Position numbers and translations under genes: made by a program. DNA of 64,000 nt from an uncultured Chlamydiae bacterium (GTDB lineage: Bacteria > Chlamydiota > Chlamydiia > Chlamydiales > Parachlamydiaceae): assembly GCA_963754655.1 (NCBI GenBank), contig CAVWGN010000001.1:736001-800000 (forward strand), given 5' to 3'. Below are positions 4,023 to 62,518 of this stretch, in pieces (position 1 is the stretch's first letter; each line of letters opens with the position of its first letter). The notes below the pieces were generated by a model, which saw nothing but the letters and a program-made list of their open reading frames with translations, made no database searches and was not told where the DNA came from.

Positions 4023-4640
4023 ACGCTTGGGCGGGTGTGATTAATTTTTTAGCAGATCAATACGAAATGGTAGGGCGGTGGTAGCCGCTTTTAGTGGGAA
4101 GCCCCGTATGAAACGAGCTTGCGAGTGGAATGCGGGGTGGGCATCAATAAAATATAAACCGCGGAAGCGGTGTGAGTGATCTTACGCTGCTTCCGCAGCT
4201 CAATGCTATCTTGCCTACACCCCGCATTCCGCTCGCAAGCTCGCTTCATACGGGGCTTCCCACTGAAAGCGGCTACCGCCGCTCTACCATTTCGTATCGA
4301 TCTGCTAAAAATATAAACTTCCAGATTTAATCACACCCCCGCTTGGGCTGTGGGCTAAAAAAAGAATAGGGCAAGCGCTAAAATTTAAGCCTTAAAGCAC
4401 TTAAAATGATAGCTGAAGTTTTGCAAATGTGAAATTATCTCATTTGATCACGCAATCTTGTACAATTGTTAATCTTTTCCTCTTCTGCCTGAGAAAGTAG
4501 TGATGATGCTCTTTTTTAGTGGCTTACATTTGATTGTGCAACCAGTAGATTGAAATTTGCAAAACTTCAGCTATCATTTGAAGTGCTTTAGGCTTAAATT
4601 TAGCGCTTGCGCTATTCTTTTTTAGCCCACAGCCAAGCGT
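4023..4640. mobile_element. MITE-like element B (about 90-bp imperfect TIRs) with element A inserted in its left end
   Basis: ACGCTTGG(G)CTGTGGGCTAAAAAAAGAATAG...TTTGCAAAT is mirrored by ATTTGCAAAA...CTATTCTTTTTTTAGCCCACAGCCAAGCGT. Confidence 0.75.
4033..4338. mobile_element. Palindromic MITE family A, copy 1
   Basis: TIR GGGTGTGATTAA/TTAATCACACCC; flanking direct repeat GCTTGGGC (4025-4032 and 4341-4348); near-identical to 14476-14797. Confidence 0.85.
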
Positions 4641-4697
4641 CAGCGCAGCTGTGGGGTCAGGAGAAAACTGATTGTTCCCAGAGGGGGACGTCGTGCG

Positions 4698-5038
4698 CCC
4701 GGGTTGGGATGAGATGATTCTCTTGTAGTCCTTCAGACTACATGACGAGGGTTAATCTAACCCAGGGCGATGCCCTGGGCTATTTTTATTTGAAGCCTTT
4801 CAGGCTCTGAACAATTAGACATCTTTTTATTAACCGTCTCTAAATGATTGTGGAGTATGTACCATTTAATAAGGCATGGCCCTACAATCGTTATAGAAGG
4901 AGTTCTTTCAAAAATGTCCAATGTTCAGAGCCTGAAAGGCTTCAAATAAAAATAGCCCAGGGCATCGCCCTAGGTTAGATTAACCCTCGTCATGTAGTCT
5001 GAAGGACTACAAGAGAATCCTCTCATCCCAACCCCCGG
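4698..5038. repeat. Palindromic REP-doublet element C
   Basis: About 115-bp inverted arms GGTTGGGATGAGA...CCCAGGGCGATGCCCTGGGCTA...GCCTTTCAGGCTC around a ~100-bp spacer; also at ~38356, ~48298 and ~55223. Confidence 0.9.
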
Positions 5039-5040
5039 GG

Positions 5041-5493
5041 CTAGGGTGTTCATTTTGTGCAAAAAATGAGCTTTATTTTTCACAATAATTGGCATAATTA
5101 AATTAAAGGTCGCATGTTTATGCCGTCCTTTCAGGACTCGATGTCTTTTTGATAGAACCCAGGCCTCCGCTTCGCTGCGACCTGGGCTGTAACATGACGG
5201 CCCTTCAGGCCTTAACAAAAAGATGATTTAGGGTCTATAGAAGAGGGACTTAAACATCTCTTGTTAAGGCCTGAAGGGCCGTCATGTTACAGCCCAGGTC
5301 GTAGCGAAGCGGAGGCCTGGGTTCTATCAAAAAGACATCGAGTCCTGAAAGGACGGCATAAACATGCGACCTTTAATTTAATTATGCCAATTATTGTGAA
5401 AAATAAAGCTCATTTTTTGCACAAAATGAACACCCTAGCCCCGGGGCTTTGAAGCAGTTCCAATGGGCAAAAACTAATGTGGTTGAGTACTAG
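5041..5493. mobile_element. Palindromic element D (shell CTAGGGTGTTCATTTT, containing shell G and REP doublet F) followed by the right arm of shell E
   Basis: 5041-5438 is a near-perfect ~400-bp palindrome bounded by CTAG; 5439-5493 reads ...GGCAAAAACTAATGTGGTTGAGTACTAG. Confidence 0.9.
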
Positions 5494-14475: not shown

Positions 14476-14797
14476 GGGTGTGATTAACTCTGGGAGTTTA
14501 TATTTTTTAGCAGATCGATACGAAATGGTAGAGCGGCGGTAGCCGCTTTCAGTGGGAAGCCCCGTATGAAGCGAGCTTGCGAGTGGAATGCGGGGTAGGC
14601 ATCAATAAAATATAAACCGCGGAAGCGGTGTGAGTGATCTTACGCTGCTTCCGCAGCTCAATGCTATCTTGCCTACACCCCGCATTCCGCTCGCAAGCTC
14701 GCTTCATACGGGGCTTCCCACTGAAAGCGGCTACCGCCGCCCTACCATTTCGTATCGATCTGCTAAAAAATATAAACTCCCAGAGTTAATCACACCC
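14476..14797. mobile_element. Palindromic MITE family A, copy 2
   Basis: Long TIRs starting GGGTGTGATTAACTCTGGGAG; exact 8-bp TSD AGTGACTA (14468-14475 and 14798-14805). Confidence 0.9.
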
Positions 14798-20325: not shown

Positions 20326-23300
20326 ATGAAGCGGATAAGGTGGATAATTGTTGGCTCTTTGTTCTTCTGTATGCTTATTTTTCATCATGCTTTCTTGACT
20401 TTCCTTGCCAGTTGGGCGCTCCAAGTTTTTTCTGTTTCTCATTGGGGGGGATCTCTTCAATATGAAAATCTCTCTTTGATAGGCACACGATTAGTGATCA
20501 TTCAGCCTCGATTTGAGCATGCCTCTTCCTTTAAAGCTGAACGCATAGCCTTAAATTTTAATGTTCATTTATGGAAACGGCAACTGGATGTTGAAATAGA
20601 AATTGAACAACCTCATTGGCATTTTCAGATGCCTATGACTTCGCAATGGGAAAAATGGGCAAAACTCTTGAGTCAGGAAGAAAATTGGATCAAAATCCAT
20701 CCCCATTTGCATATTAAAAAGGGTTTGGTCACTTGGTCATTTGAAGAGGAGCCTTCTCATCAATTGCATTTTGATTTGGCAATCAATAATCAAGAAGGTG
20801 GCTCTATTCAACTTTATTTCGATTCTGAGGAATCGATGACTCCTTCACTTGTTTTGCAAACATTTCAGGTTGCTCATGGCGTAGAAATCAACTGCACCTG
20901 CGAAAAAATCAGTTGTCCCTCTTTTATTGCTCTAGCTCAATTTTTTGGAGTTAATGTTTCGCCTTGGCAACTCACATCCGGTTCCTTGCATGGGCAATTA
21001 AAGGCCATTTTTCCTAGAATGAAAAGACCCTATCTTGAAGGCGAATTAATTGTTGAAAAATTGATATTTAATCAATTAGGAATTGCACTAAATGGACAAA
21101 TTGAACAGGCACGTCTTAAATTAGAAAAAAATCAACCTGCTTATGAATTGAATGATCAAATTTCGACGACTATTGGACAACTTGACATTCTCAAACCTGC
21201 CTCCTTGTCTTATGATTCTCCAATCCATGCATGGACCCTGCAACGGATCCTGGGAAGCATTCAACTTAACCCGATGGCGACAGCTCTCATTAATCTTGAA
21301 GCTCAAAGAGGCGATGACCCTCATGGCTCTTGTTGGGGTCTAACAGGCAAGGCGAATTTAAATGCTCAACGTTCATTCAATTTAGATTTAACTTTGTCTT
21401 GTTATGCTTGGGGACAGCCTAATGGCAAAATGCATTTAGCTTTAAACCAATTGCAAGAGGGACATAAACATGCTGAAATGCAATTGGAGAATCTTTCTCA
21501 TGCAGACTGCGATTTCTTACAGACTTTGCTTGCGACCTATTGGCCAATTTTTAATGAGGTGTTGCTTACTGATGGCAAACTCAATGCTTTAATTGAAGCA
21601 GATGTGATGCATCAGGGAATTGGAGAACTCCATATCAAGCAATTTGAAGCCTTTGGTTTACGTTCCAAAATTAAACCTTGGAATATGAGTTGCGACTTTG
21701 AACAAATAAGAGGTTCTGGAAAAGTCCATCTTGGAAAACAAGATTTTTGGCAATCGCTTACGGCAGAATTGCATGTAGAAGAGGGGAAAATTCAATTTGA
21801 AAATCTCAGTCCTTCGTTACCTTTAACTGATATTCAAGCCCATTTACTCATTCAACAAGGACATGTCGAACATTCATTAATCACTCTTCAACTTGCAGGT
21901 TTGAAAGGAAAAATGGATGTTGAATGGGGCAAGCATAAACAACTTTTAACTTTTAAATTAGATGGAATTGTAGAGGATTTAGCACATTTGCTGCCTAATA
22001 GTTTACAAGAGGGTTTGCATAAACATTTTCATCATAATCATTTGATGGTATTGGCTAATTTTAAAAGGCAAAACCAACAAATTGAACTTGGTGGTACACT
22101 CCATATTCAACGTACGAATACAGATCAAATGGATTTGATTCACTTCGGCTGTGATCTTAAAAAAATTCAAGAAGGCTCAGAATCCAAATATGTTCCAGTT
22201 GGCTGGTTCCATGCTCAGAAGCTTCCTCTAGAAAAGTTTTTATCTCCCTTCATTTTCCGTAATGGAATTTTACAAATGTCCGGAGAGGCAGAATTTAAAG
22301 GATCATTTGATGATCAATTTCTCCTCATTAAATACGATGTCAATGATTTAAAAATAGAAAATGACAATTTATGTATTGAAATCCCGCAGCTATATTCTCA
22401 AATTCCCGGGCAGCTTGTTGGATCGCATCGTCTCGATCTTCACACCTCTACTTATCAAGGGACTCTTCCTATTCAGTATGCCTCTTATTTTGAAAAAAAT
22501 ACTGGCCTTGCCTTTCAATCTATTCAGGGACTGATGACCTTTAAAAACGACTTTATCCGCATTGCCCCTATTGAAAGCTATTGTGAAGGAATTTATTTTT
22601 CTGGAGAGCTTGAATTAGATTATAGCGATCCCGTCCCTGGAGTATTTGATGTGAAGATTCATTGTCCAACCTTTTCCGGGAAAGTCTCTCAAATTCAAGA
22701 TTTAGTGGCCCATTTAGATCAACCTTCATTATTACATACAGTTCCTTTGGAAGGCGATGTGACAAGCAAAGAGGAGGGATTGCATTTAAACTTTACTTTT
22801 ATTCCTAATGACTATCAGTTCAAGGCCAATATTCGCGGAGCAATGACAGATGGAAGATTAGTCTTTAAAGAGGCTGACATGGCTCTTAAGGGAATTGATA
22901 TGGATATTGATTATGATCACCAGCAACAGCTTTTGGCTTTTACCGATATTCAAGGAGCGTTCTTGGTTGGTAAGCCTCGTCGAGTCGAAGAATATCTTTT
23001 TACTGGACATCACGTGCATTTTTATCAAATTGCTCAACCTAATATCGACATCGATGTTGCCATCAAGGATAAAGAAAAAGAGTTATTACGTTTAGTGGGA
23101 TATACACAGGAAGAGCAAGGAGGTGTCAAAAGTCTTTATTTAAATCAAAAGCTTTCCCATCTCAGTTGTCTTTACCCTCACGTTTGGCAATGCAAGATAA
23201 AAAATGGGGCACATCTAGAACAACTTGAGTTCCGCTCAGAATTTGATGTAGGAAATTTATTTCATGATTTATGCAGCTTTCGTAAAACGGGCTTTTCCTT

Positions 23301-25440
23301 TTTATCACCTAATATCATTGATAAAATTTCTCAATTTTTGCCCCTAGAAGGACAAGGCTTTTGTGCTCTTCATTATCATCCTGATCAAAGTTATACCTAT
23401 CAGCTCGAAGGAAGACGCATAAAACAAGGCAATCTTAGCGAACATTTTGGATGCCTCAAAGGAAGTAAACATGAGAAAAAATGGATTGTCGACCAATTGC
23501 AATGGGATGATTGGAATGTTTATGCAGAATTGCATCAGATGGAAGATAAATGGAAAATTCCTTTTTTAGGATTAAAGGTTGGGCAAGCTGTATTGCTTGG
23601 ATTAGAAGGGGATTGGTTTCATGAACATGCTTTTTTACAAGCAAAACTCAAATTTTGTGAGGTGGACTTAGATGAGTTGGATCATTTTGATGCTTTGAAA
23701 CCCTTCGTAACGAAATGGTGGCCAAAAGGAAAAGTAAATGCAACAGGAGAAATTGAATGGAATCTCCTCACTTCTAATTTTTGGGAGGGTTGTCAAGCTT
23801 CTTTATTAGCAGAGGCCAGCAATTTATCTTTTAGAGATTATCCTTTACGAGTTTTAAATTCTTTCAAAATAGATCTTCATCCGCTTCACCATTTTCGTTT
23901 GGAGAATCTCCACCTTGAACTTTTTCCGTTAAAAAGCCACTCTTATATCGATTTAAAAACATTTGAATATTTGACTGCTCAGGATTCTATTGGTTTTATG
24001 CAAACTGTTTTTAACATTCCTCATACGCAATTAAAAATTGTAGGAGAAGCACTTCATCATCATTTTCCCGATGTGTTTGATGTGACCGTGAAAGAGCTCT
24101 TCGTAAACGCGAAGCGAGAAAAAGCGTTAAAGGGAGTTCTAACAGTTGAACATCGCCTTCCTGGTCAGAATTTTCTGCAGTTAAAACTAGAAGATGGCCT
24201 TTATCTATTCAAAAAACGAGAATATGATCTCAAACAATTTGATCTGCAAATGATTGGAGAAGACTTGCGGTTCTCAGCTTTTTCTCAGCAAGAGTGCTAT
24301 CCATTTCAAGTGATTGGACAATCCAAGTGGCCTGCTTGTCAACAAGTCCAATGTCAATTCATCGGTGCGGGGACATCCCAACCCTTAATGGTCCAATGGC
24401 AGAATCATCCACAACAAGGATGGATGCTTCATGCTATGCAGGGGGATTTTGGCGGTTGTTCTTTCCGTTTAAGAGAAGATCAAGAAGCTGCGCCAAATAC
24501 TGGATGGATGGCTTTACAAGGGCAAATCACAGTAGATTTTAATCAGTTATGCCCGTTGTTATCTCGATCTGTAGCTGAAGCCATTCAAAAATTAAAAATG
24601 GGATCTTTTTATTCTTTTATAGGCCATTTTTGGATGAATTCAGATGTGGGTTCGACTTTTTTGGATACTATTTCTTTTCAGGGAAGCTTGACAAGTGAAA
24701 AGGCTATTTTGAAAGGATATCAAGTGCAGAGTTTGCAAGCAGATGTCCAATATGTGCCTGGCCGCTTAGATATGCAAAATGTGTGGATTCAAGATCCAGC
24801 AGGAAATCTTAAGGCTGCGAATTGCATGGTGATTCAAGATCAGAAGTTTGATAAATGGACTTTTTTTATTCCAAGCCTGACAGTAAAAAATTTGCGCCTT
24901 AATCATTTAAGAGATGCAGAAGATGATGCTCGGATCAATTCTAAATTCCGTTCATTGATTGTGAAGCGAATTGAATTTCAAGATTTGAGTGGGGAATTGA
25001 ATCAACTGCACACTTGGCAAGCGGAGGGAAACTTACATTTTGTGAATCCATCACGCAAGAATTTTTTTCATCCTCTTTTGGCAATTCCAGCTGAAATTAT
25101 TTTGCGTTTAGGTTTGGATCCGCATGTTTTTAATCCTGTCACGGGTATCATTTACTTTCGCTTACAGAACAGACGCTTTTATTTCAATCGTTTTAAAGAT
25201 GTCTATAGCGAAGGTAGAGGATCAAAATTTTACTTAGCACAGGACAACGATTCTTCTTGGATGGACTTTGATGGAAATCTATCGGTCAATGTGCGCATGA
25301 AGCAATATAACCTTATTTTCAAAATTGCAGAACTTTTCACAGTATCCATTCAGGGTAATATCAAAAGGCCCCGTTATAGTTTACAAAAGCAATCGAAAGG
25401 CTCTCGAAAAAGACAAATGCCACCCATGGTGAGTAGCTAA
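20326..25440 (+). CDS. Large hypothetical protein, probably AsmA/TamB/YhdP-like
   Basis: 1704 aa, single N-terminal TM, repetitive amphipathic beta-strand pattern, C-terminal VSIQGNIKRPRY; fold inferred. Confidence 0.7.
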   Translation: MKRIRWIIVGSLFFCMLIFHHAFLTFLASWALQVFSVSHWGGSLQYENLSLIGTRLVIIQPRFEHASSFKAERIALNFNVHLWKRQLDVEIEIEQPHWHFQMPMTSQWEKWAKLLSQEENWIKIHPHLHIKKGLVTWSFEEEPSHQLHFDLAINNQEGGSIQLYFDSEESMTPSLVLQTFQVAHGVEINCTCEKISCPSFIALAQFFGVNVSPWQLTSGSLHGQLKAIFPRMKRPYLEGELIVEKLIFNQLGIALNGQIEQARLKLEKNQPAYELNDQISTTIGQLDILKPASLSYDSPIHAWTLQRILGSIQLNPMATALINLEAQRGDDPHGSCWGLTGKANLNAQRSFNLDLTLSCYAWGQPNGKMHLALNQLQEGHKHAEMQLENLSHADCDFLQTLLATYWPIFNEVLLTDGKLNALIEADVMHQGIGELHIKQFEAFGLRSKIKPWNMSCDFEQIRGSGKVHLGKQDFWQSLTAELHVEEGKIQFENLSPSLPLTDIQAHLLIQQGHVEHSLITLQLAGLKGKMDVEWGKHKQLLTFKLDGIVEDLAHLLPNSLQEGLHKHFHHNHLMVLANFKRQNQQIELGGTLHIQRTNTDQMDLIHFGCDLKKIQEGSESKYVPVGWFHAQKLPLEKFLSPFIFRNGILQMSGEAEFKGSFDDQFLLIKYDVNDLKIENDNLCIEIPQLYSQIPGQLVGSHRLDLHTSTYQGTLPIQYASYFEKNTGLAFQSIQGLMTFKNDFIRIAPIESYCEGIYFSGELELDYSDPVPGVFDVKIHCPTFSGKVSQIQDLVAHLDQPSLLHTVPLEGDVTSKEEGLHLNFTFIPNDYQFKANIRGAMTDGRLVFKEADMALKGIDMDIDYDHQQQLLAFTDIQGAFLVGKPRRVEEYLFTGHHVHFYQIAQPNIDIDVAIKDKEKELLRLVGYTQEEQGGVKSLYLNQKLSHLSCLYPHVWQCKIKNGAHLEQLEFRSEFDVGNLFHDLCSFRKTGFSFLSPNIIDKISQFLPLEGQGFCALHYHPDQSYTYQLEGRRIKQGNLSEHFGCLKGSKHEKKWIVDQLQWDDWNVYAELHQMEDKWKIPFLGLKVGQAVLLGLEGDWFHEHAFLQAKLKFCEVDLDELDHFDALKPFVTKWWPKGKVNATGEIEWNLLTSNFWEGCQASLLAEASNLSFRDYPLRVLNSFKIDLHPLHHFRLENLHLELFPLKSHSYIDLKTFEYLTAQDSIGFMQTVFNIPHTQLKIVGEALHHHFPDVFDVTVKELFVNAKREKALKGVLTVEHRLPGQNFLQLKLEDGLYLFKKREYDLKQFDLQMIGEDLRFSAFSQQECYPFQVIGQSKWPACQQVQCQFIGAGTSQPLMVQWQNHPQQGWMLHAMQGDFGGCSFRLREDQEAAPNTGWMALQGQITVDFNQLCPLLSRSVAEAIQKLKMGSFYSFIGHFWMNSDVGSTFLDTISFQGSLTSEKAILKGYQVQSLQADVQYVPGRLDMQNVWIQDPAGNLKAANCMVIQDQKFDKWTFFIPSLTVKNLRLNHLRDAEDDARINSKFRSLIVKRIEFQDLSGELNQLHTWQAEGNLHFVNPSRKNFFHPLLAIPAEIILRLGLDPHVFNPVTGIIYFRLQNRRFYFNRFKDVYSEGRGSKFYLAQDNDSSWMDFDGNLSVNVRMKQYNLIFKIAELFTVSIQGNIKRPRYSLQKQSKGSRKRQMPPMVSS

Positions 25441-25726
25441 TACATGAGTAGAAGATATATCTTCCTCTTTTAACTTAACCTTCTTAATAATTTTTAGGCT
25501 TTGAGTATGCCGTCCTTTCAGGACTCGATGTCTTTTTGATAGAACCCAGGCCTCCGCTTCGCTGCGACCTGGGCTGTAACATGACGGCCCTTCAGGCCTT
25601 AACAAGAGATGTTTAAGTCCCTCTTCTATAGTCCCTAAATCATCTTTTTGTTAAGGCCTGAAGGGCCGTCCTTTCAGGACTCGATTCTTTTTTATTTTAC
25701 CCAGGCCTCCGCTTCGCTGCGACCTG

Positions 25727-26568
25727 GGGCGTGTTTTAAAAAGATTATTTATGATATAATAATAGTTGTAGGGACCCATAGGAGGTGTTTATGACTAGAA
25801 TGTTTTTAAAAGATAAGGACTGGGAGAAGCTAAGTCCATTATTACCTTCGCAAACAGGTAAACAGGGAAGACCTAGAAAAAATGATCGGTTGGTAATAGA
25901 AGGGATTTTATGGTCTATAAGAACGGGAGCTCCTTGGAGAGATATGCCCCCTGAATTTGGCCACTGGCAAACGATCTATTCAAGAATGCATAACTGGACC
26001 TTAAATGGAACTTGGTCAAAAATTTGGAGTGTTTTGAAAAAAAAATGCATCCCACGAATCACATATTATTGATTCTACAAGTGTTAAAGTACATCAAAAT
26101 GCAATGGGAGGTTTTGGAGGAAAAACATTTAATGGAATTGGAAAGACACAAGGTGGTTGGTCAACAAGAATTCATGTTGTAGTTAATGCTGAAGGGCAAC
26201 CATTAAAAGTAAAAATTGCTCCTGGAAATAGAAATGATAATTTATTTGCTAAATCTCTATTAAATGGGAAACGAGCAAAAAATGTTATAGCAGATCTAGC
26301 TTATGATACAGATGAAATTAGATACTATTTAATGAAAAGAAAGGAACGAGCTGTCATTCCAAGTCACCCAAAGAGAACTGATGAAATTCCCTATAGCAAG
26401 CGTTTGTATAAAAAAAGAAAGGTTGTGGAGAATTTTTTCCAAAAACTAAAAACTTTTAGACGAATTGCTACTCGTTACGATAAGTTAGGAAAAATATTTA
26501 GAGGAGTGGTTATAATTGCGTTTATTATAATTTATATCACACATTGGTAATGTTTTTCAAACACGCCC
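25727..26568 (+). mobile_element. IS5-family (IS427-like) insertion sequence
   Basis: TIRs GGGCGTGTTTTAAAAAGATTA / TAATGTTTTTCAAACACGCCC; TG (or CTGG) target duplication; two-ORF transposase. Confidence 0.9.
25785..26550 (+). CDS. IS5-family transposase, two frames joined across an A9 run (26037-26045)
   Basis: OrfA has GRPRKNDRLVIEGILW...TGAPWRDMP; the OrfB frame has IIDSTSVKVHQ, IADLAYD, YKKRKVVENFFQKLKTFRRIATRYDK. Confidence 0.9.
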
Positions 26569-26894
26569 TGGGCTGTAACATGACGGCCCTTCAGGCCTTA
26601 ACAAGAGATGTTTAAGTCCCTCTTCTATAGTCCCTAAATCATCTTTTTGTTAAGGCCTGAAGGGCCGTCATGTTACAGCCCAGGTCGCAGCGAAGCGGAG
26701 GCCTGGGTAAAATAAAAAAGAATCGAGTCCTGAAAGGACGGCATAAACATACGACCTTCAATTCAACTATGCCAATTATTGTGAAAAATAAAGCTCATTT
26801 TTTGCACAAAATGAACACCCTAGACCAGGGCAACGCCCTGGGTATAAGTGTGTTGTGTCATGCAGCCTGAAGGGCTGCCAGAGTGTCAAATTTT

Positions 26895-26976
26895 TAGTAA
26901 AATACCAGTCATGAAACACGTCCTATGGGCCCTACAACTATATTTATATCATAAATAATCTTTTTCAAACACGCCC
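26895..26976 (-). mobile_element. Isolated, inverted copy of the IS5 left end
   Basis: Reverse complement GGGCGTGTTTGAAAAAGATTATTTATGATATAAATATAGTTGTAGGGCCCATAGGACGTGTTTCATGACT matches 25727-25797. Confidence 0.85.
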
Positions 26977-27337
26977 CAGCCCAGAGCCGGGACTTAATAT
27001 CTAAGCAACTTTTTGGGGTTTTCTCTCTGTTCTTCGCGTCACTTTTGTTACCAGTGATTTTTATCAGTTTCAATGCCTTTTTTCCTTCATCTGTTTCTAA
27101 TTGCTCTTATCGGTTTTAGCACTTTCTTCCTTCGACTTAAGAATGTGGGACCAATATTTTCAACTTCCCATTGCTTAACTTCACTATAGGGATCATTCTC
27201 AAATGCTTAAACCAGTAAATCCTCTTCCATTTGATTACGAATCATTCGTAATTGACATTTTATTTTAATAATTTTATTTCTTGAATGTATACCTAATTGC
27301 CTTGTAATTCTTAACGGCTTAGATTCTTGAATAGGAG

Positions 27338-28096: not shown

Positions 28097-28593
28097 CTAG
28101 TACTCAACCACACTAGTTTTTGCTTATTAGGACGGTGCAAACCCTCGAGGCGTTAAGGTAAGAGATGAGCGTAGGCTAAGCGACGCATTCAGTCGCCCGC
28201 CGCTTCGCTCTGGGCTCTAGGTAAGGGGATATGGACCCACCGTTCGGTCGCCCTCCGGGCTCGGTCACGGTGGGCTAGGATCAGTCGTCCTCCGGACTCT
28301 AGCAGCAGTGTAAAAGCCATGGAATATTAGGTAAGACGTTTGATAATGCTGCTAGAATGCTAGTCAAGGCGTTTTGATAATGCCGCTAGAGTCCGGAGGA
28401 CGACTGATCCTTAGCCCACCGTGACCGAGCCCGGAGGGCGACCGAACGGTGGGTCCATATTCCCCTTACCTAGAGCCCAGAGCGAAGCGGCGGGCGACTG
28501 AATGCGTCGCTTAGCCTACGCTCATCTCTTACCTTAACGCCTCGAGGGTTTGCACCGTCCTAATAAGCAAAAACTAGTGTGGTTGAGTACTAG
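28097..28593. mobile_element. 497-bp palindrome: shell E ends (CTAGTACTCAACCACA) around GC-rich cargo J
   Basis: About 205-bp near-perfect inverted arms, CTAG at both ends. Confidence 0.9.
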
Positions 28594-38309: not shown

Positions 38310-39354
38310 AGTACTCGTTTACATTAGTTTTTGCCTATTGGATTGCTTCATAGGCCCCGGGTTGGGATGAGATGATTCTCTTGTAGTCCTTCAGACTACA
38401 TGAAGAGGGCTAATCTAACCCAGGGCGATGCCCTGGGCTATTTTTATTTGGAGCCTTTCAGGCTCTGAACATTGGACATTTTTGGAAGACCTCCTTCTAT
38501 AACAATTGTAGGGCTATGCCTATTAAATGGTGCATACTCCACAATCATTTTAGAGACGGTTAAAAAAAAGATGTCCAATGTTTAGAGCCTGAAAGGCTTC
38601 AAATAGCCCCAGGGTTAGGGTGTTCATTTTGTGCAAAAAATGAACTTTATTTTTCACAATAATTGGCATAGTTGAATTGAAAGTCAGATGTTTATGCCGT
38701 CCTTTCAGGACTCGATGTCTTTTTGATAGAACCCAGGCCTCCGCTTCGCTGCGACCTGGGCTGTAACATGACGGCCCTTCAGGCCTTAACAAAAAGATGA
38801 TTTAGGGACTATAGAAGATGATTTAGGGACTATAGAAGAGGGACTTAAACCTCTCTTCTTAAGGCCTGAAGGGCCGTCATGTTACAGCCCAGGTCGCAGC
38901 GAAGCGGAGGCCTGGGTTCTATCAAAAAGACATCGAGTCCTGAAAGGACGGCATAAACATCTGACTTTCAATTCAACTATGCCAATTATTGTGAAAAATA
39001 AAGCTCATTTTTTGCACAAAATGAACACCCTAGCCCCGGGTGGCTGCCTAGGCTATTTTATTTGGAGCCTTTCAGGCTCTAAACATTGGACATTTTTGGA
39101 AGACATCCTTCTATAACAATTGTAGGGCCATGCCTATTAAATGGTGCATACTCTACAATCATTTTAGAGACAGTTAACAAAAAGATGTCCAATGTTTAGA
39201 GCCTGAAAGGCTTCAAATAAAATAGCCCAGGGAATCGCCCTGGGTTAGATTAGCTCTCGTTATGTAGTCTGAAGGACTACAAGAGAATTATCTCATCCCA
39301 GCCGCGGGGCTTTCAAGCAATCCCAATAGGCAAAAACTAATGTGGTTGAGTACT
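38310..39354. mobile_element. 1.04-kb nested palindromic stack E[C-D(G(F))-C]
   Basis: E ends AGTACTC.../...GAGTACT; D at 38618-39030; C modules on both sides; 21-bp tandem duplication in the F spacer. Confidence 0.9.
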
Positions 39355-45042: not shown

Positions 45043-45116
45043 CGTCCTCGGCGCGACTCGAACGCGCGACCTGTTGCTTAGGAGGCAACCGCTCTATCCA
45101 CCTGAGCTACGAGAAC
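45043..45116 (-). tRNA. tRNA-Arg(CCT)
   Basis: GTTCTCGTAGCTCAGGTGGATAGAGCGGTTGCCT-CCT-AAGCAACAGGTCGCGCGTTCGAGTCGCGCCGAGGACG folds as a cloverleaf. Confidence 0.95.
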
Positions 45117-45142: not shown

Positions 45143-45450
45143 GGCATGGTTCAATTGAAGGTAACATGTTTATGCCGTCCTTTCAGGACTCGATGTCTTG
45201 TTGATAGAACCCAGGCCTCCGCTTCGCTGCGACCTGGGCTGTAACATGACGGCCCTTCAGGCCTTAACAAGAGATGTTTAAGTCCCTCTTCTATAGTCCC
45301 TAAATCATCTTTTTGTTAAGGCCTGAAGGGCCGTCATGTTACAGCCCAGGTCGCAGCGAAGCGGAGGCCTGGGTTCTATCAACAAGACATCGAGTCCTGA
45401 AAGGACGGCATAAACATGTTACCCAAAATTCACTCTTTTTGAACCATTCC
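45143..45450. mobile_element. Stand-alone shell G containing REP doublet F
   Basis: TIR GGCATGGTTCAA / TTGAACCATTCC; exact 8-bp TSD CTGCTTTA (45135-45142, 45451-45458). Confidence 0.9.
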
Positions 45451-48087: not shown

Positions 48088-48253
48088 CTAGTACTCAACC
48101 ACACTAGTTTTGTGTATTTAGATTGCTTGAAAGCTCCCGCGGTTGAATTGGCGTAAGTGGGTCAATATTAGCAATATGGACCCACTTACGCCAATTCAAC
48201 CCCGGGGCTTTGAAGCAATCTAAATACACAAAACTAGTGTGGTTGAGTACTAG
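48088..48253. mobile_element. Shell E with short palindromic insert H (GGTTGAATTGGCGTAAGTGGGTC)
   Basis: 166-bp palindrome with CTAG ends. Confidence 0.85.
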
Positions 48254-55174: not shown

Positions 55175-56101
55175 CTAGTACTCATTTACATTAGTTTTTG
55201 CCCATTGGGATTGCTTCAAAGCCCCGGATTGGGATGAGATGATTCTCTTGTAGTTCTTCAGACTACATGACGAGGGCTAATCTAACCCAGGGCGATGCCC
55301 TGTGCTAGGGTGTTAATTTTGTGCAAAAAATGAGCTTTATTTTTCACAATAATTGGCATAGTTGAATTGAAGGTCGCATGTTTATGCCGTCCTTTCAGGA
55401 CTCGATGTCTTTTTGATAGAACCCAGGCCTCCGCTTCGCTGCGACCTGGGCTGTAACATGACGGCCCTTCAGGCCTTAACAAGAGATGTTTAAGTCCCTC
55501 TTCTATAGTCCCTAAATCATCTTTTTGTTAAGGCCTGAAGGGCCGTCATGTTACAGCCCAGGTCGCAGCGAAGCGGAGGCCTGGGTTCTATCAAAAAGAC
55601 ATCGAGTCCTGAAAGGACGGCATAAACATGCGACCTTCAATTCAACTATGCCAATTTAACAAGAGATGTTTAAGTCCCTCTTCTATAGTCCCTAAATCAT
55701 CTTTTTGTTAAGGCCTGAAGGGCCGTCATGTTACAGCCCAGGTCGCAGCGAAGCGGAGGCCTGGGTTCTATCAAAAAGACATCGAGTCCTGAAAGGACGG
55801 CATAAACATGCGACCTTCAATTCAACTATGCCAATTATTGTGAAAAATAAAGCTCATTTTTTGCACAAAATTAACACCCTAACCCAGGGCATCGCCCTGG
55901 GTTAGATTAACCCTCGTCATGTAGTCTGAAGAACTACAAGAGAATCATCTCATCCCAATCCGGGGGCTTTGAAGCAATCCCAATGGGCAAAAACTAATGT
56001 GGTTGCTATTACTTAACCACACTGGTTTTTGCCCATTAGAACTGCTTCAACTCCGGGCTTTGAAGCAATCCCAATGGGCAAAAACTAGTGTGGTTAAGTA
56101 A
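55175..56101. mobile_element. Five-layer nested palindrome E[C[D[G[F]]]] with an internal 180-bp tandem duplication, plus an adjacent empty shell E (~56009-56101)
   Basis: Symmetric order E-C-D-G-F-G-D-C-E; D at 55308-55879; 55476-55655 is repeated at 55656-55835. Confidence 0.9.
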
Positions 56102-61234: not shown

Positions 61235-62518
61235 TTATAAGACCACTTCTACTTTTTTCCAGGCCCGACGAATTTCATCACGGACTTTTTGATCTTCTTT
61301 GAAAAGAGTATCAGCAGTTTTAATGGTTGCTTGGGCAAAATCTTTCATTGAAGCATTAGGTTTGAAAGCTCTAGGCGTCATCATAGTGGTGAACCATATT
61401 AAGCCTGCTTTTTCCCAAGGATTGCCCCCTAATGCCGTTGCAAATAGATAGAAAGCATGATTGGGAATTCCGGAATTAATGTGTACGCCTCCATTGTCAT
61501 CGGTGTCTTGATATAAATCGCCGTATTTAGCAGGCTGAGGATCCTTACCCAAATCCGGAATATCATAGGCTGTGCCAGGAGCTTTAAAAGAACGCAAAGG
61601 ATAGTTTTTGCCATCGTATTGCAAAATGCCATCTGCCAATAGCCAAGGCGCTGACTCGGCATTCAATTTATTGACGTACATATAGACGAGATAACCCATG
61701 ACATCGGAAAAGTGTTCGTTAAGGGCACCTGCTTCTCCTTCGTATTCCAAACGATTGCCCGTCACACCATGAGTTAATTCATGGCCAACAACATCTAAAA
61801 AGTTCACAAAAGCCTTGAAAAGCGCGCTTCCATCTCCATAAACCATTTCTGATCCATTCCAAAAAGCATTTTCATATTTAACACCAAAGTGAACACTCGA
61901 GTTAATAGCCATGCCTTTGCCATCAATAGAGTTGTGCTTGTATTGATGAAGATAAAAGAGAAAAACGTTTAAAGCATTACTTAGAGCTTGGGTGACAGAG
62001 TCATCACGTGTAGTGCCTTTTTGCTTATAGTGGATTTTGTCAATTGGATCGCCTTGAGCTGTAATGACAAGTTTCCCAGGTAAACTCTGTTGACTTTCAG
62101 CATCGTAGACGCCGCGTACGATCTTTTGAATGAAAGGAGTAGCATCAAATGGATCTTCTTTGGGTACTGGTTGGTGATGCTCGAAAGGGTTCGGTAGATG
62201 AAAGCTAAATGCATGCTGATTGTTGATCACGGATTGACGATGATTGCGAAAAGCTTCATCAGTTGCTCCATGGATATGTGCCGAAGCACGAATATGTTCA
62301 CGCTCATCATTCAATCTGACACCTTGAATTTTTTGTTGAAGATGAGGCGGAATAATATAGCATCGGCATCCACGCGCTTCTTTATGATAAGGTTCGACAA
62401 CTTCAAAGTGATGTCCATAACATCGAGTAGTCTTAGAGGGGGTTTGAAGATGTCCCCAATTTTGGACAACAGAATGAGAATCAGATAAAGGATCTATGGA
62501 TTGTTGGTAAGGATACAT
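61235..62518 (-). CDS. M4-family (protealysin-like) zinc metalloprotease
   Basis: Propeptide CYIIPPHL; NAFWNG, HELTHGV, GALNEHFSD, DNGGVHINSGIPNHAFY. Confidence 0.93.
   Translation of the reverse strand: MYPYQQSIDPLSDSHSVVQNWGHLQTPSKTTRCYGHHFEVVEPYHKEARGCRCYIIPPHLQQKIQGVRLNDEREHIRASAHIHGATDEAFRNHRQSVINNQHAFSFHLPNPFEHHQPVPKEDPFDATPFIQKIVRGVYDAESQQSLPGKLVITAQGDPIDKIHYKQKGTTRDDSVTQALSNALNVFLFYLHQYKHNSIDGKGMAINSSVHFGVKYENAFWNGSEMVYGDGSALFKAFVNFLDVVGHELTHGVTGNRLEYEGEAGALNEHFSDVMGYLVYMYVNKLNAESAPWLLADGILQYDGKNYPLRSFKAPGTAYDIPDLGKDPQPAKYGDLYQDTDDNGGVHINSGIPNHAFYLFATALGGNPWEKAGLIWFTTMMTPRAFKPNASMKDFAQATIKTADTLFKEDQKVRDEIRRAWKKVEVVL

Follow-up and report, generated by a model that had tools for sequence, protein, structure and literature searches.

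Sequence changes that set single copies apart within the palindromic repeat families of this genome are mirrored on both arms of a copy far more often than expected by chance. The mirroring is real yet partial, and among changes that are truly private to one locus it represents the minority state. Very probably, one arm was copied from the other in place, by one route or another, and we lean slightly towards quasi-palindrome template switching during replication as the process by which one arm was re-copied from the other and the changes became mirrored.

The genome comprises 3.16 Mb on two contigs, and the window, i.e., the whole stretch of 64,000 nucleotides analyzed here, represents C1:736001-800000. 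By means of a seed-and-extend scan, 953 local inverted-repeat pairs with arms of at least 30 bp were detected in 275 loci, covering 220,663 bp (7% of the genome). These repeats belong to a few families, which were named A, B, C, D and E after their examples in the window.

The focal element is a gene-less, palindromic, MITE-like D repeat of 396 bp (5042..5437) with the ends TAGGGTG...CACCCTA. It consists of a left arm (5042..5218, plus strand), a non-palindromic loop of 42 bp (5219..5260, plus strand), which lends orientation to every D copy, and a right arm (5261..5437, minus strand). Both arms are 177 bp long, and the stretches 5030-5218 and 5261-5449 are 99% complementary, so that the element was predicted to fold into one hairpin (-252 kcal/mol, z -52). 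The outer ~75 bp of the left arm constitute the element end, while the inner ~100 bp, starting at 5117, form a three-hairpin core that is identical at 91/100 positions to the 3' flank of an IS200-like Y1 nuclease gene at C1:395846. Compared to the family consensus, three G>A changes of the left arm (5097, 5100 and 5105, plus strand) are mirrored at 5382, 5379 and 5374 of the right arm, respectively. Taken singly, these changes were found at 15, 56 and 3 loci; only their combination is unique genome-wide. The right arm also carries a one-sided change, namely a T at 5302 facing G at 5177, and the flank pair 5032/5447 beside the element is mismatched as well. The two copies of the target (5032..5041 and 5438..5447) are nearly self-complementary and of the NCCCNGGGN type, the direct and the inverted reading being equal but for one base.

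On its left side, the focal D adjoins a B element (4701..5034) with 113-bp arms and a 108-bp spacer, which resembles the sequences flanking the Y1 gene at C1:2542121 and has the D element at its right end. On the other side, the arm of an A shell element follows (5439..5493, minus strand), with a CTAG duplication recognizable in comparison with paralogous empty sites. A rarer palindromic family, F, with 11 matches genome-wide, is located at 4334-4645 between C and B elements. In the Rfam comparison, a tRNA was the sole match at the gathering threshold, and sub-threshold matches to miRNA families reflect a generic resemblance among long hairpins. The D core (5158-5212 and 5267-5321) reached 36.4 bits for Acido-Lenti-1, the gathering score being 37; as judged from its sequence, this 'sRNA' motif may be a DNA hairpin derived from Y1 nuclease flanks.

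The window contains further palindromes. The C element at 14476..14797 is bounded by a direct target duplication and has a rare A>C change in mirrored form, 13 bp away from either end. An E element (28097..28593) lies within an A shell. The D copy at 38616..39032 possesses a private mirrored haplotype (38679/38958) in addition to one-sided changes and a loop duplication. A D core at 45143..45430, adjoining a tRNA gene (45043-45116), features a mirrored T>G common to other loci. Both arms of the A shell at 48088..48253 are of one sub-type, which is not private to this locus, and a symmetric nest of the order A-B-D-B-A occupies 55175..56000, where the D flanks are mirrored at 114/115 positions and the mirror stops at the module edge. 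Another D copy (25515-26979) is split by an IS5-family element with a CTGG duplication, whose transposase is split over two frames that meet at an A-run; one arm of this copy retains the Y1-flank type of the variable segment. The window also harbors an ORF of 1704 aa without Pfam match (20326-25440) and an M4 (thermolysin-family) metallopeptidase gene (61235-62518).

The original prediction had proposed that motifs private to one locus appear on both of its arms. All quoted motifs were indeed recovered at the respective loci, one per arm. The assumed privacy was not borne out, since only three of the seven occur once per strand genome-wide (5091, 38679 and 55224); the other four were found 24, 5, 10 and 21 times, and on both arms in only some of their loci.

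To determine whether the mirroring exceeds chance, observed counts were compared with those obtained after shuffling the arm partners. For family D, 95 mirrored vs. 149 one-sided changes were counted in 80 arm pairs (shuffled partners: mean 13.4, maximum 28). Corresponding values were 31 vs. 86 in 34 pairs for C (shuffle 9.1, maximum 16), 187 vs. 93 in 31 pairs for E (40.6, maximum 61), 22 vs. 113 in 26 pairs for B (3.1, maximum 11), and 10 vs. 21 in seven pairs for A (mean 2.5, with the maximum under the observed value). Hence, the predicted appearance of variants on both arms was upheld as an excess over the shuffle in every family, but it applies to only a minority of private changes, of which 8/25 (D), 10/40 (C), 6/26 (E) and 1/11 (B) were mirrored. 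Counted irrespective of family, 296 loci with 34,128 sites yielded 38 mirrored and 117 one-sided private changes. After one outlier locus had been dropped (C1:1102450-1104047, with 413-bp arms, a 772-bp spacer and 11 mirrored private changes), 27 mirrored changes in 23 loci remained vs. 103 one-sided ones, with fewer than 0.08 double identical hits expected. Mirrored and one-sided changes occur together in 26/58 D loci, homopolymer indels and multiple simultaneous changes are also mirrored, and in the A shells like pairs with like in 54/68 cases. A bias of G>A over C>T among mirrored D changes (43 vs. 6) was rejected as pseudo-replication of shared alleles, as it amounted to only 6 vs. 2 among private changes.

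Among full-length D elements (n=45), partner arms differ by 0.98 bases, compared to 3.80 (a-a), 3.73 (b-b) and 3.77 (cross) between loci. Identical arms were found in 24/45 of these elements, and exclusive sisters in the tree in 21/45. When truncated D copies were added, the partner was strictly nearest for 25/156 arms, 64 arms were tied, and 67 were nearer to an arm elsewhere. The expectation that the two arms of one locus are sisters was therefore borne out in part, with partners closest on average among the full-length D elements. The pattern named as contradicting the idea, left arms clustering with left arms across loci, was absent in D. Furthermore, all four gametes were present in 11/36 pairs of shared D variants, indicating that the arms are also subject to exchange between loci or to recurrent mutation.

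The timing of copying can be read from target sites and from duplicated loci. It had been claimed that the focal D is flanked by inverted rather than direct copies of its target; this was not confirmed, as the TAG/CTA part belongs to the element, clean direct duplications exist at other D copies, and CCCCGGGG is self-complementary, so that direct and inverted copies are indistinguishable at 5041 and the arrangement is not diagnostic. For 12/80 D end pairs, the target site was reconstructed from two or more matching empty sites of the genome. The target duplications were unchanged at two of these 12 sites, and of the 21 bases that changed, 17 have become complementary to the flank on the other side. 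As homopolymer slips are involved at three of the 12 sites, and some empty sites may represent junctions of modules, the nominal P of 1e-5 overstates this symmetry. Since a target duplication exists only after insertion, such changes would place the copying either at the locus itself or in the gap-filling step.

Duplicated loci point in the same direction, with an exception. In the pair C1:1429823/1434157, which was duplicated together with neighboring genes, five columns group the arms by locus and none by side, and the 41-bp loops are exact reverse complements of each other (orientation as assembled, between 240-bp arms). As a counter-example, the pair C1:1917522/1909857, whose arms are only 87-89% alike, features 14 side-sister columns and no locus-sister column. 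The automatic search for duplicated loci recovered C1:1917522/1909857 and 2521535/2528555 and missed the loop-inversion pair 1429823/1434157. No pairs passed the filter by which loop orientation was to be compared among 'sister composite' D copies. C elements retain their direct 9-bp duplications, yet carry ten mirrored private changes.

Mirrored outer flanks of 51-119 bp were observed in 20/80 D copies, with at least 95% identity in 15 of them. A fold-back intermediate had been suggested to account for such symmetric nests. It is not needed: fold-back duplication of unique DNA around D was found in 0/20 symmetric nests, the mirror stopping within or at the edge of a module and never reaching unique DNA (20/20). 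Central excision between mirrored sites followed by ordinary homogenization is enough for the nests, and such an excision was described for REPINs in PMC3337134. Of the repeated re-templating of one arm from the other that had been proposed, the copying in place was supported by the target sites and the duplicated pair; it is, however, slow, partial and not constant, and was not seen in more diverged pairs (family B and C1:1917522/1909857) as well as in three relatives.

D-like sequences were detected in 11/40 other genomes searched. In total, 40 regions around the best listed matches in four of these genomes were compared, which are fragmented assemblies with repeat problems of their own. In G016 (8/10 regions), symmetric doublets with 29 mirrored vs. 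21 one-sided changes were found (shuffle 4.8, maximum 13). No excess was seen in G020 (10/16 regions; 8 mirrored vs. a shuffle of 11.4), G017 (9/10 regions; 14 vs. 16.5) and G015 (4/4 regions; 5 vs. 3.8), all of which have side-specific arms. Homogenization thus is not a fixed family property and would require arms that are already close.

Regarding the origin of the families, the genome contains nine matches to Y1_Tnp, of which seven are nearly full-length, and the flanks of these genes correspond to the inner parts of the repeats. Inner cores and Y1 gene flanks agree at 91/100 positions for D, 67/90 for B, 38/56 for C and 126/141 for E. Six divergent genes of the subclass 1.2 type have open frames (C1:395846, 2429452, 2542121, 2544251, 2802252 and 2939324); five of them are flanked by sequence matching repeats of the B, C, D or E family, and one by a hairpin of its own. 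D and B represent inside-out doublets of the Y1 flank, and C keeps the flank in the gene's own arrangement. The signature Y---Q--(H/Y)H is present in 6/7 Y1 proteins and the Y---NP of class 2 TnpA-REP in 0/7, and the one protein that was scored reached 64 bits on the IS200 model and 23 of 80 on the RAYT model. As this signature denotes, according to Quentin et al. (10.1101/279083), subclass 1.2 and not class 2 RAYTs, the repeats are REPIN-like in their working, yet fall outside that group by the type of their nuclease. REPIN/RAYT traits that were observed comprise high-copy intergenic inverted doublets folding to hairpins and the same repeat flanking a Y1 HUH gene, and no GTAG/GTGG tetranucleotide of the kind at the foot of REP hairpins was evident by eye at the D core hairpins.

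Traits of DDE-type MITEs were present, too, namely terminal inverted repeats, no coding capacity and, for A, C and D, direct target duplication. The element ends also differ from those of REPINs: 9-bp duplications delimit D and C, and CTAG duplications delimit A, both being typical of DDE MITEs. For C, direct 9-bp duplications were found in 23/26 complete copies and inverted ones in none. D elements feature direct 9-10-bp duplications of the nearly self-complementary target located in other modules (clean examples at C1:453199, 2368395, 3073639 and 2342037), and A elements show CTAG duplications when compared with paralogous empty sites. An autonomous partner with D, C or A ends was not found in this genome. 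A 375-aa DDE/DUF772 ORF between D ends was considered as the autonomous partner of D and rejected, since the alignment revealed a separate IS of 1460 bp inside one D arm. This IS encodes 375 aa with DDE_Tnp_1 and DUF772 domains, is weakly IS1182/IS5-like (under the NCBIfam cut-offs), and is located at C1 sites 8222, 553827, 1378660, 1830431, 2370773, 2391580, 2494234, 2762294, 2928624, 2955055 and 3110744; all 11 plus-strand and 10 minus-strand ends found lie at one site within the first hairpin of the D core. It is apparently a repeat-targeting IS with a putative 5-bp duplication. At C1:1334333 and 1366229, D has shrunk to 36 bp consisting of the two tips only, and these remnants are likely products of hairpin deletion. 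Neither a published description of these families in chlamydiae nor one of arm conversion in bacterial MITEs was found among the literature matches listed; bioRxiv supplements might list such flanks.

According to the template-switching model, the process would start from gene-less elements combining Y1 hairpin flanks with MITE-like ends, as seen in the ~275 loci to which they spread with direct target duplications. Long hairpins would be tolerated where no SbcCD is found. New mutations are one-armed at first, a state in which most private ones still are. At times, the nascent strand would pair with either the first arm or the sister strand, copy it and return, whereby a one-sided change would be either erased or doubled; in the cross-fork form, the loop would be flipped as well. 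Such copying is confined to existing homology, as it was seen to enter the near-palindromic target duplication and not unique DNA. Near-identical arms would presumably be copied best, so that symmetric families would remain symmetric and diverged ones asymmetric.

Gene content is compatible with the second of these steps. A check of sbcCD and the mismatch-repair genes, recommended along with the original prediction, revealed intact mutS and mutL, and SbcCD was not found: sbcD had no match in the genome and sbcC only matches of 21-22 bits at a cut-off of 478. The C-terminal family of exonuclease I was likewise not found in the genome, and recA and xseA are intact. As sbcD exceeds its cut-off in only 4/41 genomes of the group, its absence is permissive at most and does not explain why this genome in particular is affected.

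The distribution of mirrored changes is partly informative about direction. Rare changes were mirrored in 16/50 cases in the outer halves of arms and in 4/43 in the inner halves (pooled P=0.011), an excess that would be expected if copying ran outward from the loop. Per family, it amounted to P=0.046 for D, 0.15 for C and 0.63 for E, and is significant only when pooled. Mirroring is lower inside the core than outside it. When the order of changes within loci was tested, no significance was reached (P=0.19 and 0.82), and no replichore bias of mirroring was seen; a strand bias is reported for template switching in PMC7202029. Mirroring was no rarer with spacers of more than 500 bp (15 vs. 35 private changes, outlier locus included). 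A rough mutation-conversion model that ignores age spread and loss gave ~0.8-3 conversions per site per residence time and a conversion rate of ~140-800 times that of mutation (c/mu). Of the features that characterize template switching, arm complementarity raised over chance, change in place and, in one case, spacer inversion were found.

Homogenization of adjacent inverted arms and flipping of their loops would also result from RecA-dependent gene conversion or crossover. Homologous recombination is named for long inverted repeats in PMC5941160, recA, mutS and mutL are intact, and the restriction of copying to homology, with diverged arm pairs left unconverted, suits this route, as do mirroring across long spacers and the four-gamete patterns, which point to exchange between copies. 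However, ~300 near-identical D arms are available as donors and the partner is strongly preferred nevertheless, and outward polarity would not be predicted, which makes RecA-dependent conversion rather unlikely in our view. Template switching and RecA-type conversion between arms are both compatible with the analyses of this study, recA being intact. Another route would involve an IS200-like Y1 nuclease that nicks the hairpin in one arm, with repair synthesis off the paired arm rewriting the sequence outward of the nick. The match of the inner D, B, C and E cores to Y1 gene flanks, the six Y1 genes with open frames, and the scarcity of mirroring in the core relative to its surroundings are consistent with it. 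On the other hand, G020 and G015 own Y1 genes and still have asymmetric, unconverted arms, and the A shells, which may be unrelated to Y1 flanks, also pair like with like (54/68 pairs), so that nicking by the nuclease appears distinctly doubtful. The same doubt applies to the broader idea that subclass 1.2 HUH nucleases would actively keep their own long palindromes symmetric by putative nicking. If true, Y1-driven symmetrization would mean that non-autonomous elements possess a built-in means of repairing themselves, and it would account for the start of mirroring outside the nuclease-derived core.

Many mirrored changes are common to several loci, among them four of the seven motifs of the original prediction, and inheritance from a parent copy that was mirrored beforehand certainly accounts for many of these. 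The stronger claim, that symmetry arises only at birth, when a new copy is built from one arm, the rest being due to shared ancestry, is very improbable, because it fails for changes within post-insertion target duplications, for the pair duplicated with its flanking genes (C1:1429823/1434157), and for elements mixing mirrored and one-sided changes (26/58 D loci). An artefact of assembly or polishing, with reads placed on the wrong arm, deserves attention in that the arm sequences depend on the assembly consensus alone, random cross-talk would be expected to yield a mirrored share of about a quarter to a third, as was seen, and short reads could leave a loop between 240-bp arms in the wrong orientation. 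Yet four private mirrored C changes are located 8-28 bp away from unique flanks, which anchor most of the reads there, mirroring peaks in the outer halves, one element can hold mirrored and one-sided changes together, and the independent assembly G016 repeats the pattern. Moreover, the high copy number of D is real, given a depth of 171-228 vs. 0-3 in the neighboring gene on soil metagenome contigs, in which the arms are not resolved (one public run, share 0.08, contigs only, and no evidence of habitat). Taken together, an artefact is considered very improbable. Selection for a perfect hairpin, fixing independent compensatory mutations, is hardly credible: PMC3116915 describes compensatory changes as frequent in the spacers of REPINs, but here mirrored changes are fewer than one-sided mismatches and include homopolymer indels as well as multiple simultaneous changes, and 27 double hits were seen where fewer than 0.08 are expected.

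In Y-chromosome palindromes, long inverted repeats are known to evolve in concert through homologous recombination. For the arms of inverted repeats, concerted evolution via template switching or homologous recombination is established according to PMC5941160, and arm homogenization together with spacer inversion are documented products of template switching (PMC5941160, PMC8604942), the latter source referring to yeast. Quasi-palindrome template-switch mutation goes back to Ripley 1982, as cited in PMC5941160, and is followed in E. coli with the lacZ reporters QP5 and QP6 (PMC7202029). The repeats studied here resemble such cases in that an arm is templated off its partner, changes are mirrored, the spacer is invertible and homology is needed. 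They differ from the cases described in these sources, with arms of ~5-20 bp, by arms of 60-300 bp, ~275 loci, dispersed mobile families and no detected strand bias. As in the chloroplast inverted repeat outlined in PMC5941160, the arms of one locus can be sisters and the spacer can invert; unlike there and in Y palindromes, the arms are far shorter, homogenization is incomplete, and hundreds of other donors reside in the genome.

Symmetric ends and compensatory changes have been noted for REPINs (PMC3116915, 10.1101/119743 and RAREFAN, 10.1101/2022.05.22.493013). Like the REPINs and RAYTs presented in PMC3116915, 10.1101/2022.05.22.493013 and PMC3337134, the repeats are gene-less intergenic hairpin doublets, each family being tied to the flanks of its own Y1 HUH gene, and symmetric and asymmetric forms occur in both; inside-out doublets and a central excision by which long palindromes are left behind (PMC3337134) are described for REPINs. 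In contrast to the REPINs and RAYTs of these papers, the nucleases belong to subclass 1.2 and not to class 2, and the arms measure 100-180 bp vs. ~25 bp in REPINs. The Y---Q--HH signature and a C-terminal extension are shared with TnpA-Y1 subclass 1.2 (Quentin et al., 10.1101/279083). That subclass is described there as generally lacking terminal secondary structures and occurring mostly in Cyanobacteria and Bacteroidetes, whereas multi-hairpin flanks and many gene-less copies were found here.

The homogenized arms are a large natural example of a known process and not a new system; their scale is unusual. With ~275 long palindromes on one chromosome, intact mismatch repair and no detectable SbcCD, the genome represents a natural experiment from which the rate, reach and polarity of arm copying are estimable, and its relatives provide symmetric and asymmetric versions of one core. 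Arm copying also offers a selection-free account of the 'compensatory' changes that are often taken as evidence for a functional hairpin or RNA in REPIN-like repeats.
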